Positions 13,313 to 29,047 of a stretch of 36,936 nucleotides of DNA are shown in pieces. A model generated the notes under the pieces. It saw nothing but the letters and a program-made list of their open reading frames with translations. It made no database searches and was not told the origin of the DNA. Location: positions 3,357-40,292 of the forward strand of contig CAZGAF010000005.1 in the NCBI GenBank assembly GCA_964523855.1, in the 5' to 3' direction. Position numbers and translations under genes: made by a program. The DNA comes from an uncultured Candidatus Saccharibacteria bacterium. Its GTDB lineage: Bacteria; Patescibacteriota; Doudnabacteria; UBA920. Position 1 is the first letter of the stretch. Every line of letters begins with the position of its first letter.

Positions 13313-13786
13313 CTACATGTACAGATTTTTGGTGTTATTTTTTTCCAGCTCCCAATTCAAAGGATTATTTCTGATATATTCTCGAATTTTTTCTAAATCT
13401 TCTTCTTTTCTAATAACATGATCATAAAAGGAAGGTTGCCATGCAAATTCTGGGTTAAGCCGTTGGCGGATATTTTTTGTGACAACATTTTTGTACGTTC
13501 CTACAATTTTAGATAAATTGTAGTGCAGGCCCGTGGCCTGCTTGTTAATAATCACAATTGCATGAATATGATTAGGCATTATTATATATCCATCCAACTC
13601 TATATCCTTATAAATTTTTGGGGTGCGCTGCCAAATTGCTTCGGCAATTTTTCCGCATTCATTAAGAATAATTCCCCCTTCTTTTATCTTGCCAAAATAC
13701 TCTTGTCTTTGGTCAGTGCATGCAGTTATAAAGTAATATCCCGGAGTTGAATAATTATATTTTTGTAACCGGTTTACTTTTCTCAT
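13313..13786 (-). CDS. IS200-like / RAYT HUH (Y1) tyrosine transposase
   Basis: 157 aa. The HUH motif is 'MPNHIHAIVII' and the catalytic-Tyr region is 'WQPSFYDHVIRKEEDLEKIREYIRNNPLNW'. The N-terminal 'YNYSTPGYYFITACT' is typical of the family. Confidence 0.85.
   Translation of the reverse strand: MRKVNRLQKYNYSTPGYYFITACTDQRQEYFGKIKEGGIILNECGKIAEAIWQRTPKIYKDIELDGYIIMPNHIHAIVIINKQATGLHYNLSKIVGTYKNVVTKNIRQRLNPEFAWQPSFYDHVIRKEEDLEKIREYIRNNPLNWELEKNNTKNLYM
13525..13541. repeat. REP-like palindrome copy 2, inside the RAYT coding sequence (GCAGGCC-cgt-GGCCTGC)
   Basis: It encodes '...KQATGLHY...'. With flanks (tgtagtGCAGGCCcgtGGCCTGCt) it matches the reverse complement of copy 1 (tgtagtGCAGGCCcctGGCCTGCt) at all but one loop base. 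Confidence 0.75.
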
Positions 13787-13834: not shown

Positions 13835-14977
13835 CTAGCGCAACTCCGCATTATAAATACGTTTGGTCTCTTCATATAACTTGTTATGAAGGGGTTCAAC
13901 TTCTTCTGTTGTAAGTGTTCTTTCAGGACTCCTGTAGACAATGTGGTATGTATAACTCAAACGGTCTTTGCCAAACTTGGCTTCGTTTTCATATTTGTCC
14001 ATTAAAGAAACTTCTTCTACCAAGTCGCCGCCAATTTCTCTAATTAAATCAAAATAGTTATTCGGTACAAAGCTTTTGTTTACTATAAACGAAATATCTC
14101 GAGGTACTGGGGGAAACTTGCTAACTTCCTGAAATTTGTTCCCAAGTTTTAGCTGTTTTTTAACTCTAGGATCTTCGCTCCAAAGAAGTCTAATGTCTGG
14201 AAGTTCCATGCTGGAAATGGCAAGTCGTTCCAGGCCAAATCCAAATGCCCAGCCGGTGTAGTTATTGCTGTCTACACCAAGTTTTTCCAACACACTCCCT
14301 TTTACAACACCGCAACCGGTAACTTCTACCCACTTACCATTTAAGTCCACTTCCATTTCAAGAGAAGGATTTGTGTATGGGAAAGTGTCCGGATTTAGGC
14401 GATATTTAACATTTGGTCCAAATACAGCTTTGGCAATGTTGCCTAAAGCCTCTTCCAGGTCTTTTTGATCTATGGTTTTAACAGATTTTGGTGCTAAGTA
14501 CCAACCGTCTATTTGATGAAAGACGTTCATGTGTTTGCTGTCAATTTCGTCTTTTCTGTAAACTTTACCAAAACTAAAAGCACCAACAGGCTTGTTTTCC
14601 GAAATAGCTTTTTTTACACCTTCGTCTTTAAGAAAGTAATACCACATAACCGTCGTATGTGTACGTAAAATGTTTTTATCATCAATGTAGTAAGTGTCGC
14701 TCTTGCTCCTGGCTGGGTGGTCGGCAGGGAAATCAAACAAGTCAAAGCTTATATCAGCCGGAACTATTTCCGGCGTTTGTATGGTATCTAAATCTTTAAA
14801 ATATTCGCTATTTAAAATTCTGTCTACAGCTTCTTTTATTGGACTACCTTCTGTTCTAGACAAGTCGGGCATACTTAAATAGCGCCTAATGCGCATTGCT
14901 TCAAAATCTGCTCTGTTGTTAAGTTGTTTTTTAAGCTCTTGTTCCTCAGCTAGATCTACAAATATTTTACGCGGCAT
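13835..14977 (-). CDS. pheS: Phenylalanyl-tRNA synthetase, single-chain mitochondrial-type architecture (PheS catalytic core fused to a C-terminal FDX-ACB domain)
   Basis: 380 aa. Class IIc motifs are 'FPADHPARSKSDTYYI', 'FPYTNPSLEMEVDLNGKWVEVTGCGVV' and 'GWAFGFGLERLA'. Then 'PDIRLLWSEDPRVKKQL' leads into 'SKFPPVPRDISFIV...FDLIREIGGDLVEEVSLMDKY...YTYHIVYRSPERTLTTEEV', a ferredoxin-fold anticodon-binding domain that normally forms the C-terminus of PheT. Confidence 0.85.
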   Translation of the reverse strand: MPRKIFVDLAEEQELKKQLNNRADFEAMRIRRYLSMPDLSRTEGSPIKEAVDRILNSEYFKDLDTIQTPEIVPADISFDLFDFPADHPARSKSDTYYIDDKNILRTHTTVMWYYFLKDEGVKKAISENKPVGAFSFGKVYRKDEIDSKHMNVFHQIDGWYLAPKSVKTIDQKDLEEALGNIAKAVFGPNVKYRLNPDTFPYTNPSLEMEVDLNGKWVEVTGCGVVKGSVLEKLGVDSNNYTGWAFGFGLERLAISSMELPDIRLLWSEDPRVKKQLKLGNKFQEVSKFPPVPRDISFIVNKSFVPNNYFDLIREIGGDLVEEVSLMDKYENEAKFGKDRLSYTYHIVYRSPERTLTTEEVEPLHNKLYEETKRIYNAELR

Positions 14978-15153
14978 AAATAAATAAAATTATTCTCACC
15001 CAGCGGGTGATCTGTTTTAGGTAGGATAATTAACCAAATTATACTAATTATTCTAAAAAATCTTAAATCCAACGTTAAAATCTACTGGTTGATTAGTTTT
15101 AGTTATTGGGTATTATTTAGACAACTTAGAGCGCTTAGTATAATTAGAATAAT

Positions 15154-15585
15154 TTATTTTAGCATCTCTTGGCTGAACTGACTACCCGCTTTAGTGCTCG
15201 ATTTCAAAATCATTATCTCCGGCTTTTCTTCTATAGGACCAAGTCCAAGTTCAAACTTGGCACATATCATACCTTGGCTTTCTACGCCACGGAGCTTTGC
15301 TGTGCCTAAAGTAAAGCCTTCGTGAGTTTCCGAGTGAATATTTTTGGGAATATAAGCTCCAGGCAAAGCTAAAGCCACTATGTCTCCGGCTTCAAAATTC
15401 CAAGCTCCGCAAACCACCGGGTCAATCACCCGGTCGCCAATATCTAACTTAACAACTCGTAATCTGTCTGCATTCGGATGCTTTTTAACTTCTAAAACTT
15501 TCGCCGCGAATATGTTTTTAAAAGTTGGTTGCGGATTACTTGAAAAAAGTTTTTTTAAAAAATTAAACATATAAATATTTATCAA
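15154..15585 (-). CDS. Stand-alone OB-fold tRNA-binding domain protein (PheT-B2 / Trbp111 / CsaA-like)
   Basis: 143 aa. 'KKHPNADRLRVVKLDIGDRVIDPVVCGAWNFEAGDIVALALPGAYIP...GTAKLRGVESQGMICAKFELGL' matches the tRNA_bind domain at the N-terminus of bacterial PheT. The start could instead be the internal Met 6. Confidence 0.8.
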   Translation of the reverse strand: MINIYMFNFLKKLFSSNPQPTFKNIFAAKVLEVKKHPNADRLRVVKLDIGDRVIDPVVCGAWNFEAGDIVALALPGAYIPKNIHSETHEGFTLGTAKLRGVESQGMICAKFELGLGPIEEKPEIMILKSSTKAGSQFSQEMLK

Positions 15586-17500: not shown

Positions 17501-19330
17501 TTATTCTAAATCCAAAAATTCACACTTATGTTCTTTTGTTTTTTGGTGCAAGTCTTTAAACGAATTATACTTAACGGCTTCAACAATGTCGTGCATGGTT
17601 TTTTTTAGCTTTTCCTGTAGCTCGCTAAGTTCCTCAGTGCTTGCCAAGCTTTCCTCAACAAAAGTGTTTTCCTGCAAATACCAATACTTTAAGCTTAGCA
17701 CCTTCTCGTGCATAAATTCTTGAGCTGCCCATTGGTAAATATACAACTGGTCTAAATCCTTTTTATTTTTTGGAGTTTTTCCTGTTTTATAGTCAATAAT
17801 TTGCAAACCACCATCTAGTTGGTCAGCTCGATCAATTTTACCCACAAATTCAAAGTCACCCAAATGAAGTTTAAAAAACTTTTCAATAAACTTGGCCTTA
17901 GGTTGGCCTTTTTTCAAATCCTCGTAAAAAAAATTTAGCATTTTAGAGCCAGTACGTCTGTATTTTTCTTTTTCCTCTTTGGTTGGGTACCACTCGTCTA
18001 TCCAATATTTTTGGTAAAATTGTTCCAGAACTTTAAACTCCGGCAGCGGGTCATCGCTGGGCTTTTTACCAAAAAGATCAAGTTGCGTAAGCTCTTGGTT
18101 ATTTTGATATATCTTTAAGAATTCTTCAAAAGTCTTATGTATAGACGAGCCAAAGCTCATATGATGACTCCCCGCCCACGGAATTTTCAAATAGTGAATA
18201 TATTTATATTTAAGAGGACAGGTTTCAAAGTCAGTTAGTTGAGTGTAGGAAAAACGTTTAGGTAAGGTTTTATAAACTTCATTTAATTTAGTGCTTTGAA
18301 GAACCAACGGTTTTGTAAAAACAACTTTTCCGGTTGCTTGGCTCACCTTTTCACTTGGCACCAGCCCAGTTTCAACTAAAAACTGAGAAGGTTTTTTTGC
18401 TCTAGAACCTCCATAGTCCTTTGACCAAGTTAAATAAAGCCTGTTTTTAGCGCGAGTTATGGCAACATAAAACAAACGTCTTTCTTCTTGTAAGTGAAAG
18501 TCTCCTTCCGGCAAAATGTCTTTTATTAAGTCGGTTGGTATTTCTATAGATTCACTTTTTTGGCGAGTAGGAAAACGCTGGTCAACCATGTTTATTATAA
18601 AAACATTTTTAAACTCCAAACCCTTGGAAGCATGGACTGTCATGACTTTGACGCTTTCAGGTCCGCTGTTCGGATCGAACTTTATATTTCCATCGCTACC
18701 TGCCTTAAACTCTAATTCCAAGTCCACTAAAAATTCATGCAAACTTTTATGTTCGTTCTGCTTTTCGAATTCCTCGACGCGCTTATAAAACTGCTCTAAA
18801 TACTCTCGGCTTTGTGCGGCAACTTGAGTTTCCTGGCTTAGCTCCTTCTCGAAAGATAGGTCATGCACAATACTTACTAAAATTTCGGTGGCAGAAAGTT
18901 TTTTGGCCAAAACAGAATGCTTTTGTATATTTTCCCATAAAAAATTTAAAGACTTTTTGGCAGTTTCTGAAAGCTCCGGAAAAGTTAAACTCGGAAATAT
19001 GGTTTCGTATAAGCTTAAAGTCTTTTTGTGAGCATAACCCGTCAGTAACGACATCTCAAAATGACTTAAGTTAAATTTTGGCAAACTTAAAACCCTATAT
19101 AAAGACTTTGAGTCAAGAGTATTGTCTAGAATTTTTAAATAACTCAAAATATCTAAAATTATTGGTTTCTTATATAAGCCTTTGTTTGCAAAAAACGCAT
19201 AAGGAATATGGTACGAATCAAGCACCGGCATTATTTCGTCTGCCGCTGAATTAGCCCGCATCAAAATTGCAAAGTCATTCCAATTCGCTTTTTCCCCTGC
19301 TTCTTTATATAACTCAATAGCCCCATACAT
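17501..19330 (-). CDS. UvrD/PcrA/AddA-type helicase, C-terminal part (2A/2B domains) fused to a PD-(D/E)XK RecB/Cas4-like nuclease
   Basis: 609 aa. 'NDFAILMRAN', 'VMTVHASKGLEFKNVFII' and 'RRLFYVAITRAKNRLYL' are helicase motifs IV-VI. The C-terminal 'SYTQLTDFETCPLKYKY...GKIDRAD...IIDYKTGK' is a RecB-family nuclease. The start ATG is created by the insertion described in the findings. Confidence 0.75.
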   Translation of the reverse strand: MYGAIELYKEAGEKANWNDFAILMRANSAADEIMPVLDSYHIPYAFFANKGLYKKPIILDILSYLKILDNTLDSKSLYRVLSLPKFNLSHFEMSLLTGYAHKKTLSLYETIFPSLTFPELSETAKKSLNFLWENIQKHSVLAKKLSATEILVSIVHDLSFEKELSQETQVAAQSREYLEQFYKRVEEFEKQNEHKSLHEFLVDLELEFKAGSDGNIKFDPNSGPESVKVMTVHASKGLEFKNVFIINMVDQRFPTRQKSESIEIPTDLIKDILPEGDFHLQEERRLFYVAITRAKNRLYLTWSKDYGGSRAKKPSQFLVETGLVPSEKVSQATGKVVFTKPLVLQSTKLNEVYKTLPKRFSYTQLTDFETCPLKYKYIHYLKIPWAGSHHMSFGSSIHKTFEEFLKIYQNNQELTQLDLFGKKPSDDPLPEFKVLEQFYQKYWIDEWYPTKEEKEKYRRTGSKMLNFFYEDLKKGQPKAKFIEKFFKLHLGDFEFVGKIDRADQLDGGLQIIDYKTGKTPKNKKDLDQLYIYQWAAQEFMHEKVLSLKYWYLQENTFVEESLASTEELSELQEKLKKTMHDIVEAVKYNSFKDLHQKTKEHKCEFLDLE

Positions 19331-20499
19331 ATTTCCCCTGCTTCTTTATATAACTCAATAATTTTTTTTGCCACACAGTCCATTTCCCCACCTATATCGC
19401 TGGCCTCTAAAACAGAAATTACCCCTTCGTTTTTTTCAGCTCCTGCTTTAAGCCTTTTATCTATTTTAAGCTTAACCTCCAGTCTGTCTGGATTATTTGT
19501 CTGTATAAAGTTATAAGCCAAGTCTAAAATGTTTTGGCTAGAGCGGTAATTTTGGACCAAAGTTACTTCTCTGCTTTTTGGAAAATCTTCTTTAAACTTT
19601 AAAATGTTTGAAACACTCGCGCCTCTAAATTTATATATAGACTGGTCGTCGTCGCCTACAACTGTTAAATTAGAACTGCCACCAGCCAAAAGTTTTACTA
19701 ACTGATATTGAGCAAAGTTAGTGTCCTGAAATTCGTCCACCATTATGTATTTAAACTTACTCTGGTACCTTTGTAATAGCTGAGGTCTTTTTTTAAACAA
19801 CTCCAAAGTGCAATTTATTAAGTCGCCAAAATCTAGCAAGTCATTGTCGTGCAAAAGTTTTTGGTAAACAGAAAAAGCGTTTGCCAGCTCTTCAATTCTG
19901 GCAATTTCTGTTTCGTCAGGCGCTTCTAACAAAACCTTTGCGGCTTTAGCTTTTTTATTCGGTAAGTTGATTTTTAATTTCAAACTTTCGGAGTATTTTA
20001 AATATTCACTTGGCGAAATAAGCTCGTCCTTACAACGCGAAAAGTGGCTGAGCAAAGAGTCAATAAACCTGTTTGGGCTGCCCAAAGGCCTGTAGTAATT
20101 TAAGTTCAGTTTTTCAAAATTGTTATGAAGCAAAATCCAGGCCTGTATGTCGTTGACCAGCTTAAAGTCGTTAGGTAGTCCAATGTCTAAACCATGCGCC
20201 TTTAAAATTCTCTCACCAAAACTATGGAAAGTAGATATCCAAAGGTCGTGATAACCCATTGGCAAAAGTAAATCTACCCTTTCTTCCATTTCACCTGCGG
20301 CTTTATCTGTAAAAGTTAGAGCTAGTATTTCGTCTGGTTTTGCCAAACCTTGCTCAATAAGATAAGCAATTTTTCTGGTTATAACTGTTGTCTTTCCAGT
20401 ACCGGCTCCGGCCACTATTAAAAGCGGACCGGTTGTATGAGTAACGGCCGTTGTCTGTTCGGCATTAAGTCCTGCTAATAGTGTTTTTGAAGTAGACAT
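19261..20499 (-). CDS. UvrD/PcrA/AddA-type helicase, N-terminal part (1A/1B domains), terminated by a frameshift
   Basis: 412 aa. 'LNAEQTTAVTHTTGPLLIVAGAGTGKTTVI' is Walker A, with 'ILALTFTDKAAGEM' and 'YIMVDEFQDTNFAQY' (motif II). The last about 27 aa (ICMGLLSYIKKQGKKRIGMTLQF) are out-of-frame read-through. Confidence 0.75.
   Translation of the reverse strand: MSTSKTLLAGLNAEQTTAVTHTTGPLLIVAGAGTGKTTVITRKIAYLIEQGLAKPDEILALTFTDKAAGEMEERVDLLLPMGYHDLWISTFHSFGERILKAHGLDIGLPNDFKLVNDIQAWILLHNNFEKLNLNYYRPLGSPNRFIDSLLSHFSRCKDELISPSEYLKYSESLKLKINLPNKKAKAAKVLLEAPDETEIARIEELANAFSVYQKLLHDNDLLDFGDLINCTLELFKKRPQLLQRYQSKFKYIMVDEFQDTNFAQYQLVKLLAGGSSNLTVVGDDDQSIYKFRGASVSNILKFKEDFPKSREVTLVQNYRSSQNILDLAYNFIQTNNPDRLEVKLKIDKRLKAGAEKNEGVISVLEASDIGGEMDCVAKKIIELYKEAGEICMGLLSYIKKQGKKRIGMTLQF
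19291..19360. repeat. 29-bp perfect direct repeat (19291-19319 and 19332-19360) separated by 12 nt, at the helicase split point
   Basis: TTTCCCCTGCTTCTTTATATAACTCAATA occurs twice. Both copies encode IELYKEAGE on the minus strand. Confidence 0.9.
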
Positions 20500-28330: not shown

Positions 28331-29047
28331 TTATCGTGTTTTAAAAAATTTGTCAAGATTTTTTTCGTCAATTAAACACTTCAACAACTTTTTTTTCTGT
28401 GTTGAATTTTTTAACTTATCTACTTCACTTAAAATTTTATTTCTGCTTAAAGTTCCCAAACAAGAAAATTTATTTTTTATTGCTAAGTAGCTTTCTGTTT
28501 CGATTTTAAAATCTAATTCTAAAGCAAACCTAAAAGCTCTAACAATTCTTAACGGATCTTCTATAATTCTTTTTTTCGGCTCACCAACAAATTTAATTTG
28601 TTTCTTTTTTAAATCTTCTATTCCGCCATGAAAGTCCAAAACTTTACCGTCTTTTAAGCTTAAATATAAGGAGTTTATGGTAAAATCTCTTCTTTCGCTG
28701 TCTTTTTTTACGTCAGTAATAAATACAGTTTTAGGGTAACGAGATGTACCATAGACTTCTTTTCTAAAAGTAGCAACAGCAACAGCTTCGGTATCTTTTA
28801 AAGCAATTATAATACCAAGGTTTTTATAGGTTTGGTTAAAATCCAAATAATGTTTTTTTAAAATTTCTGCCACTGCTTCCGGCTTTGCGCTAGTTGCGAT
28901 GTCTATGTCTTTTGGTGTGCGGCTTAAAAGTATATCGCGCACTGTACCGCCAACGAAAAAAGTTTGCTTGAAGTTTTCCACAAGCAAACTATATATTTCG
29001 CAACCAAACTTTTCCATTTCAGAAGATGGCTGATATTTAAATTTCAT
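28331..29047 (-). CDS. Short tRNA nucleotidyltransferase / poly(A) polymerase family protein (CCA-adding-type head and neck only)
   Basis: 238 aa. Motifs are 'FFVGGTVRDILLSRTPKDIDIAT' (GGxVRD..DxD), 'ERRDFTINSLY' and 'EDPLRIVRAFRFALEL'. The body/tail region of full-length class II enzymes is missing. It starts 10 nt after the atpC stop. Confidence 0.75.
   Translation of the reverse strand: MKFKYQPSSEMEKFGCEIYSLLVENFKQTFFVGGTVRDILLSRTPKDIDIATSAKPEAVAEILKKHYLDFNQTYKNLGIIIALKDTEAVAVATFRKEVYGTSRYPKTVFITDVKKDSERRDFTINSLYLSLKDGKVLDFHGGIEDLKKKQIKFVGEPKKRIIEDPLRIVRAFRFALELDFKIETESYLAIKNKFSCLGTLSRNKILSEVDKLKNSTQKKKLLKCLIDEKNLDKFFKTR

Follow-up and report, generated by a model that had tools for sequence, protein, structure and literature searches.

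Introduction

The heterotetrameric (alpha-beta)2 form of phenylalanyl-tRNA synthetase (PheRS) has been described, in PMC3275996, as conserved in all known prokaryotes, and the same source presents human mitochondrial PheRS as the alpha catalytic module joined to the beta-subunit domain B8, a chimera that arose via massive domain loss and is the only monomeric class II synthetase. In the present study, we analyzed a stretch of DNA of 36.9 kb from an uncultured Candidatus Saccharibacteria bacterium placed by GTDB in the Doudnabacteria (assembly GCA_964523855.1, contig CAZGAF010000005.1, positions 3,357 to 40,292), hereafter referred to as the window. It carries a gene for a 380-aa single-chain protein of the mitochondrial type, and directly upstream of it a gene for a 138-aa protein that resembles the B2 domain of the PheRS beta subunit (PheT). 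We hold with good confidence that the best explanation of the 380-aa protein is an active PheRS of the PheRS-M type in a housekeeping role, provided in this lineage with a B2 helper.

In AARS Online and the paper accompanying it, PheRS-M is classed as 'mitochondrial-like' (PMC11580382, PMC10810186). For genomes of the Candidate Phyla Radiation (CPR), another study reports B2-like domains fused to TyrRS and LysRS, and the dropping of B2 from the PheRS beta subunit (PMC5370408). In a full-text literature search we found no account of a bacterial single-chain PheRS or of a missing pheT in CPR. What is new in the present locus is a bacterial, core-gene enzyme of the PheRS-M type which, in the subclade of the window, is supplied with B2 either in trans or in cis.

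Domain architecture and active site of the 380-aa protein

The open reading frames (ORFs) of at least 100 aa in the window were checked with the Pfam profiles, and the two proteins of the locus also with those of NCBIfam. The features of the locus, with the evidence for each in brackets, are as follows.

13835..14977, minus strand: single-chain PheRS gene of the PheRS-M/FARS2 type, 380 aa, stop codon included (ORF, Pfam, PDB match, orthologue clusters)
14153..14842, minus strand: class IIc catalytic module, aa 46-275, with motifs and Phe pocket intact (PF01409, alignment)
13838..14122, minus strand: C-terminal FDX-ACB (B8-type) anticodon-binding domain, aa 286-380 (PF03147)
14978..15153, minus strand: spacer of 176 nt between the synthetase gene and the B2-like gene (sequence)
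15154..15570, minus strand: free-standing OB-fold tRNA-binding protein of the PheT-B2/YtpR type, 138 aa (PF01588, NCBIfam, fold)

An earlier note on this DNA had read the 380-aa product as a PheS core joined directly to a C-terminal FDX-ACB domain with no editing module in the chain, and this description held in each respect. Exactly two Pfam domains were found, namely the PheS class II core PF01409 (E 2e-55, 188 bits) and FDX-ACB PF03147 (E 8e-22, 78 bits; cutoff 31). The latter profile was matched over its full length (positions 1-94) by the C-terminal 95 aa, the segment on which that reading had been made to depend in advance. Domains B1, B3/B4, B5 and B6-7 were not detected in the chain by Pfam.

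The protein was aligned with PheS of E. coli and S. aureus, the mitochondrial PheRS of a fern and a choanoflagellate, and true proteins of the related family SrmL, which is treated below. It retained DHPAR, LRTHT, the motif-2 arginine R141, H149, FHQ155xDG, FPYT202 (T251 in E. coli), GWA244FG (A294 in E. coli) and the motif-3 arginine R251; in particular, R141, H149, Q155, T202, A244 and R251 were invariant with respect to both bacterial PheS proteins and the mitochondrial enzymes. A294 of E. coli PheS, the counterpart of A244, determines the size of the Phe pocket. The N-terminal coiled coil of about 85 residues found in both bacterial PheS proteins was absent, as was an insertion of about 30 residues carried by the human and choanoflagellate mitochondrial enzymes. 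At its N-terminus the protein has a conserved helical segment of about 45 aa and lacks a targeting peptide.

The locus has a homologous core with the same Phe-pocket residues in common with the (alpha-beta)2 enzyme (TIGR00468 plus TIGR00472), and its FDX-ACB domain and neighboring protein correspond to B8 and B2 of PheT, respectively, whereas the coiled coil, B1, the B3/B4 editing domain, B5 and B6-7 are all missing and B8 sits on the alpha chain. With mitochondrial PheRS (human FARS2, yeast MSF1) it shares the single chain of alpha module and B8/FDX-ACB without coiled coil, beta domains or editing site. It differs from that enzyme in being a core gene on a bacterial chromosome, in the N-terminal segment, in the lack of a targeting peptide, in the missing insertion, and in its score on the mitochondrial model TIGR00469 (235 bits for a cutoff of 258). 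Moreover, PMC3275996 describes mitochondrial PheRS as having lost B2, whereas the subclade of the window pairs or fuses a B2 OB fold with its enzyme.

With such an architecture, the class II alpha module would activate Phe and then transfer it to tRNA-Phe, while the C-terminal FDX-ACB domain of the same chain would read the anticodon, GAA. If it behaves like human FARS2, the enzyme may be a monomer in which a move of the anticodon-binding domain out of a closed state into an open one admits the tRNA. As no B3/B4 editing site is present, its accuracy would rest on discrimination at the synthetic site.

Nearest relatives and curated family models

When the 380-aa protein was compared with the PDB by phmmer, the six best matches were all human mitochondrial PheRS (3cmq, 8p8x and others; E about 4e-59, 204 bits), and bacterial PheS alpha chains scored at most 127 bits (E 7e-36 or weaker). 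The FDX-ACB domain lay within a 160-bit stretch aligned to the anticodon-binding domain of FARS2, as against about 33 bits for bacterial PheT B8, and identity to the fern and choanoflagellate mitochondrial enzymes was 38%. Predicted folds were compared with Foldseek. The AlphaFold model of a 77%-identical relative, with a predicted local distance difference test score (pLDDT) of roughly 75-94 over the synthetase part, had as its best match the closed state of FARS2 (3cmq; E 1e-32, template modeling score 0.67), superposed with a root-mean-square deviation (rmsd) of 4.2 A over 388 columns; bacterial alpha chains were weaker (E 7e-22). The likeness to human FARS2, to which the earlier note had pointed, was hence recovered as the top PDB match both by sequence and by predicted fold.

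The scores on the NCBIfam models were as follows.

SrmL, 'PheS-related mystery ligase' (NF051887): 249.7 bits, cutoff 300
pheS_mito (TIGR00469): 235.2 bits, cutoff 258.35
pheS (TIGR00468): 165.7 bits, cutoff 237.45

TIGR00469, the model against which the earlier note had proposed to check the protein, was accordingly missed. A relative 62% identical to the 380-aa protein (P0121) clears the same cutoff with 264.3 bits, and the clade straddles this cutoff, which was trained on eukaryotes. The 380-aa protein is a borderline member of TIGR00469, having all the architectural features of the family and narrowly missing the curated score.

Membership in SrmL, a family of ligases of unknown function, was rejected on the score below the cutoff, the low identity and the canonical motifs. 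True SrmL proteins reach 359-423 bits on NF051887 and are about 30% identical to the 380-aa protein. In those examined (P0265 and a phage SrmL) the motifs are degenerate, reading IIHHMD or EPHQMD for FHQxDG, NNISRS for DHPxRS and HYYT for FPFT, whereas the 380-aa protein keeps DHPAR, FHQIDG, FPYT and GWAFG. What the two have in common is the two-domain layout, a similar length, the prokaryotic or phage setting of the family and a grouping of SrmL with the CPR enzymes in trees. Canonical bacterial PheS (TIGR00468) was also rejected, given the 165.7 bits, the absent coiled coil and the lack of an adjacent pheT.

Separately, the genome of an uncultured huge phage (LR745206.1, 634,780 bp) was found to encode a true SrmL with degenerate PheRS motifs (L084:3986-5065, 423 bits), by which the SrmL family reaches huge phages.

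The B2-like neighbor

The B2-like gene most likely starts with the ATG at 15570, giving 138 aa, and the upstream in-frame TTG at 15585 is a less likely start. The ORF formerly drawn to 15585 with 143 aa is real as an ORF, and its start should probably be moved. The sole database entry identical to the protein (P0286) is likewise 138 aa long, and the orthologues are of similar length.

The protein matched PF01588 (tRNA_bind) with E 4e-17 and 62.5 bits. Its best NCBIfam match was pheT_bact, over positions 40-152 (the B2 part) with 105.8 bits; the cutoff of this model (TIGR00472, 402.65) was not reached, and since only the B2 segment is covered, identity with a full PheT beta subunit was rejected. 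On YtpR (NF045760) it scored 84.2 bits at positions 80-185 of 185, short of the cutoff of 100, with the N-terminal half of YtpR absent, and it was also below the cutoff of TapR (NF045867). The best PDB match by sequence was the YtpR-like protein 3bu2. For the AlphaFold2 model (pLDDT 90.4), the best Foldseek matches were the PheT B2 domains of E. coli and P. aeruginosa (rmsd 1.8-2.5 A, 35-37% identity), together with YtpR 3bu2, and Trbp111 and MetRS-C were weaker. The neighbor is consequently, as first proposed, an OB-fold tRNA_bind domain alone and of the PheT B2 kind, a description in which PF01588, pheT_bact and the predicted fold agree. It shares the PF01588 fold, free or fused to a synthetase, with YtpR, Trbp111/CsaA, MetRS-C, Arc1p/EMAP II, B2-TyrRS, B2-LysRS and TapR, and differs from these modules in its PheRS-M-type partner, in a fold nearer to PheT B2 than to Trbp111, and in lacking the N-terminal half of YtpR.

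Related loci were drawn from the GTDB collection, with one genome per species and up to 10 kb on either side of the match. Relatives of the synthetase were encoded in at least 566 pattern-matched stretches, the best 80 of which, each from the genome of a different species, were compared in detail; counts of neighboring genes refer to 83 loci, with the flanking genes grouped into families by our own clustering. A B2-like gene lay directly upstream of the synthetase gene and on the same strand in 17 of the 83 loci, that is, in every locus bearing B2, and all 17 fall within the Doudnabacteria-like subclade of the window. The same order was seen on contigs of 811 kb (JAXOUH010030583.1) and 1.21 Mb (CAYYWQ010000001.1). 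The spacer shrinks to 26 nt in one relative (L101), the ORFs overlap in another (L001), and fusions such as that in L002 have none.

In three proteins from three different sources (P0059, P0065 and P0082), B2, core and FDX-ACB follow each other in this order in one ORF of about 505 aa. Such natural fusions constitute the strongest evidence for a joint function of the two window genes. In a search with the B2-like protein itself, the top 120 matches were all free-standing orthologues. The order of B2 followed by alpha-B8 is not obtainable from pheS-pheT by a single deletion; plain decay of an operon does not account for the locus. JGI uses the name 'PheRS alpha chain' for the synthetase and 'PheRS beta chain' for the 138-aa protein with B2 alone, and NCBI calls both hypothetical.

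We consider that the 138-aa protein is probably a PheRS-dedicated tRNA-binding accessory of the subclade of the window, acting in trans here and in cis where fused. It would probably add non-specific tRNA affinity, like the OB-fold domains appended to other synthetases. A different view is that it is a general tRNA binder of the Trbp111/YtpR type, adjacent by chance and with no specific role in phenylalanylation. Consistent with this view are the PDB sequence match to 3bu2 and the service of PF01588 to several synthetases, including its fusion to TyrRS and LysRS in CPR reported in PMC5370408, as well as the lack of such a neighbor in most Parcubacteria having the synthetase. The 176-nt spacer points the same way, for a consensus scan found promoter-like hexamers in it (15066->15038), although the promoter-like matches in this region were not above shuffled expectation; the spacer also has a small hairpin (15010..14996). 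Nevertheless, a chance neighbor would hardly be expected to be fused three times to the N-terminus of the same enzyme, to stand directly upstream on the same strand in 17 of 17 loci, with overlapping ORFs in L001, or to have PheT B2 domains as its best structural matches ahead of Trbp111 and MetRS-C, and the protein is under the YtpR cutoff with half of YtpR missing. Taken together, these points made an unrelated binder unlikely, and a dedicated accessory of the PheRS-M-type enzyme is preferred.

Distribution and conservation of the synthetase gene

Among 5.8 billion proteins searched, more than 120 clusters were 75-93% identical to the 380-aa protein, nearly all of them about 380 aa long, and those with names belonged to Doudnabacteria, Wolfebacteria and other Patescibacteria. 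The best 80 of the GTDB stretches, 56-82% identical to it, came from Doudna-, Giovannoni-, Zambryski-, Yanofsky-, Nomura-, Lipton- and Vogelbacteria and from 'Paceibacterota', and a further search added Staskawicz-, Nealson- and Portnoybacteria as carriers of a single-chain synthetase. This spread over Doudnabacteria and many Parcubacteria groups backs the link to CPR biology drawn in the earlier note. Four ORFs with N-terminal extensions (L054, L021, L078 and L040) showed no extra Pfam domain in these extensions, which are probably start-codon artefacts of ORF calling.

The synthetase gene adjoined gyrB in about 52 of the 83 loci, and nusG-rplK, thrS, tsf-rpsB and dnaE were also found around it. 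Over 50 loci, the mean identity to the window counterparts was 66% for the synthetase versus 64% for GyrB, and the synthetase was usually better conserved than the neighboring class II synthetase and SerRS genes. In CPR, the synthetase gene behaves as a core gene. Two relatives from outside CPR, P0124 (from a metagenome-assembled genome labeled Oligoflexia) and P0411, have IS110 and DDE transposases, a phage-type integrase and accessory enzymes as neighbors (L103, L104), which suggests that they are horizontally acquired extras in ordinary bacteria.

The beta subunit and the question of a sole PheRS

No B3_4, B5 or beta catalytic-like domain was found by Pfam in the window ORFs of at least 100 aa, and in a tblastn search of the window with E. 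coli PheT the sole match was the B2-like gene. The window together with 82 related loci, 1.25 Mb altogether, contained neither B3_4, B5 or B6-7 sequence nor a second PheS-like gene within 10 kb of the match. Within these bounds, the statement of the earlier note that no beta subunit with an editing domain is visible at the locus was substantiated. When viral contigs were scanned with PheT of S. aureus and E. coli, 15 full-length pheT genes turned up, none of them bearing a mark of CPR origin.

Considering the intact active site, the conservation and context of a core gene, its retention in at least 80 species with very small genomes, and the missing pheT and second PheS in 1.25 Mb, we infer that the single-chain enzyme is likely to be the only PheRS of the cell. 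It would have replaced the (alpha-beta)2 form both here and across much of the Parcubacteria/Doudnabacteria. That the protein is an active enzyme of the PheRS-M type is somewhat more likely still.

Several observations weigh against an active, sole PheRS with a B2 helper. The 380-aa protein is under every curated NCBIfam cutoff, its top-scoring model is SrmL, and the NCBI records of these synthetase relatives read 'hypothetical protein', a name explained by the position of the protein between the curated models. PMC5370408 indicates that many CPR lineages do possess a PheRS beta subunit, and the search for pheT and pheS extended over 10 kb to either side, so that a canonical pheS-pheT pair could lie farther off. 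A search for tRNA-Phe genes covered the window and 44 related loci and found none. As for the helper, most loci with the synthetase have no B2 gene nearby, which means that B2 is not required for this class of enzyme and is an add-on instead of part of its basic design; and in the AlphaFold2 model of the fusion P0082, the B2 part, for which there are only three covering sequences, had a pLDDT below 50, too low to be relied on.

Some of these points could also be accommodated if the protein were an extra PheS-derived paralogue acting, like SrmL, on another or unknown substrate, alongside a normal pheS-pheT elsewhere in the genome. SrmL not only gives the top score but has the same layout of core and FDX-ACB and groups with the CPR clade (86% and 71% bootstrap), the search for pheT was confined to the window and the flanks of 82 loci, and P0124 and P0411 sit in accessory-looking contexts. 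Nonetheless, the score is well short of what true SrmL proteins attain, identity to them is only about 30%, the motifs lost in SrmL (DHPxR, FHQ, FPF and GWAFG) are all kept, and the close relative P0121 passes the mitochondrial PheRS cutoff. Furthermore, the gene is conserved at the level of GyrB in a housekeeping neighborhood in at least 80 species whose genomes are about 1 Mb or less, in which a redundant synthetase is unlikely to persist. We accordingly judged a paralogue of other specificity quite unlikely, and retained a housekeeping PheRS of the PheRS-M type as the preferred assignment.

Phylogeny and the origin of the mitochondrial enzyme

An HMMER pass over 1.84 billion representatives yielded only 250 clusters at E <=1e-30. 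All scored members outside the prokaryotic groups passed TIGR00469, and the two named ones among them are eukaryotic (Pteridium and Salpingoeca). Neighbor-joining distance trees with 100 bootstraps were built with E. coli PheS as outgroup (full alignment) or with eight canonical PheS as outgroup (core only), and the support for each group was as follows.

Main CPR clade: 97% with E. coli PheS, 80% with eight canonical PheS
CPR, recoded and Oligoflexia-like sequences: 77% with E. coli PheS, 79% with eight canonical PheS
All prokaryotic forms including SrmL: 86% with E. coli PheS, 71% with eight canonical PheS
Eukaryote-type sequences as one clade: 45% with E. coli PheS, 67% with eight canonical PheS
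Whole single-chain family: not scored with E. coli PheS, 100% with eight canonical PheS

The prokaryotic clade stands beside the eukaryote-type clade and not within it, and is thus a sister group and no recent offshoot of one eukaryote. This sister-group relation lends support to the connection with the origin of the mitochondrial enzyme that the earlier note had raised; the trees are distance-based and moderately supported, and do not decide which way the gene was transferred. A eukaryotic gene, brought in by assembly contamination or by recent transfer of a mitochondrial PheRS from a eukaryotic host, was rejected as highly improbable, since, although the nearest characterized relatives are all eukaryotic mitochondrial enzymes, the gene shows bacterial synteny (uvrD, gyrB, greA, serS, F-ATPase) on contigs of up to 1.2 Mb, is carried by all of the best 80 loci, each from a different bacterial species genome, belongs to a clade of its own beside the eukaryote-type one with either outgroup, and lacks the insertion of the human and choanoflagellate enzymes.

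A far-reaching combination of the above would have the heterotetrameric PheRS wholly absent from much of the Parcubacteria/Doudnabacteria and replaced by an editing-free single-chain PheRS, with the fusion of alpha core and B8 being bacterial and pre-mitochondrial in origin, and with eukaryotes having inherited or acquired their mitochondrial PheRS from these bacteria instead of forming it through domain loss after endosymbiosis. We put this forward tentatively, as a possibility on the doubtful side.

Some distant members of the family deserve mention in their own right. P0123 and P0127 have W at conserved G positions ('WHP' for 'GHP', 'LW' for 'LG'), a pattern typical of translating UGA=Gly genomes by another code, so that the family probably reaches Gracilibacteria/Absconditabacteria-like lineages. 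P0134, P0136 and P0160, of 348-357 aa, score above the cutoff for mitochondrial PheRS, and their genes lie on long metagenomic contigs (up to 340 kb); small eukaryotes, giant viruses and other prokaryotes are candidates for their source.

Other features of the locus and its relatives

Between the PheRS gene and gyrB, the window carries an ORF of 157 aa for an IS200-like Y1 transposase (13313..13786, minus strand; PF01797, E 1e-8). As no such ORF is present in the syntenic loci L001, L002 and L101, the last of which has an unrelated 89-aa gene there, it looks like a recent insertion.

For a UvrD/AddB-like helicase-nuclease, the window has two separate but overlapping ORFs, of 609 and 412 aa (17501..19330 and 19261..20499, respectively, both minus strand). 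The orthologues in the same three loci are single genes for 974-997 aa, which indicates a frameshift in the window, due to either a pseudogene or an assembly error.

Beside the gene for the ATP synthase epsilon subunit, a 238-aa ORF (28331..29047, minus strand) is limited to the PolyA_pol head domain found in the CCA-adding enzyme family. The short form is also found in L101, the copy in L002 being cut by the end of the locus, and in other Parcubacteria loci the protein has about 483 aa and looks full-length.

In L036 (11439-14861), the GyrB encoded beside the PheRS gene is about 1140 aa long owing to a large insertion, which resembles an intein and includes a homing-endonuclease-like region. 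This GyrB is the representative of neighbor cluster 44, which also takes in L028, L030, L077 and L081.

Implications

The names given to the two window genes have consequences of their own. The JGI labels 'alpha chain' and 'beta chain' hide the missing beta subunit, and automated pathway tables would show PheRS as complete or missing for the wrong reasons. The genes pheS and pheT belong to the standard bacterial marker-gene sets, and their use as markers may affect completeness and phylogenomic estimates for these genomes.

With respect to the enzyme family, the question of the origin of FARS2 gains a concrete bacterial sister group, and the occurrence of B2 in trans, in cis or not at all offers a natural experiment on an accessory tRNA-binding domain of a minimal synthetase. 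If the single-chain enzyme is indeed the sole PheRS, the heterotetramer rule would fail for a major bacterial radiation. These bacteria would then live without PheRS editing against Tyr and meta-tyrosine (m-Tyr), and the tolerance of mistranslation in minimal genomes would become testable.

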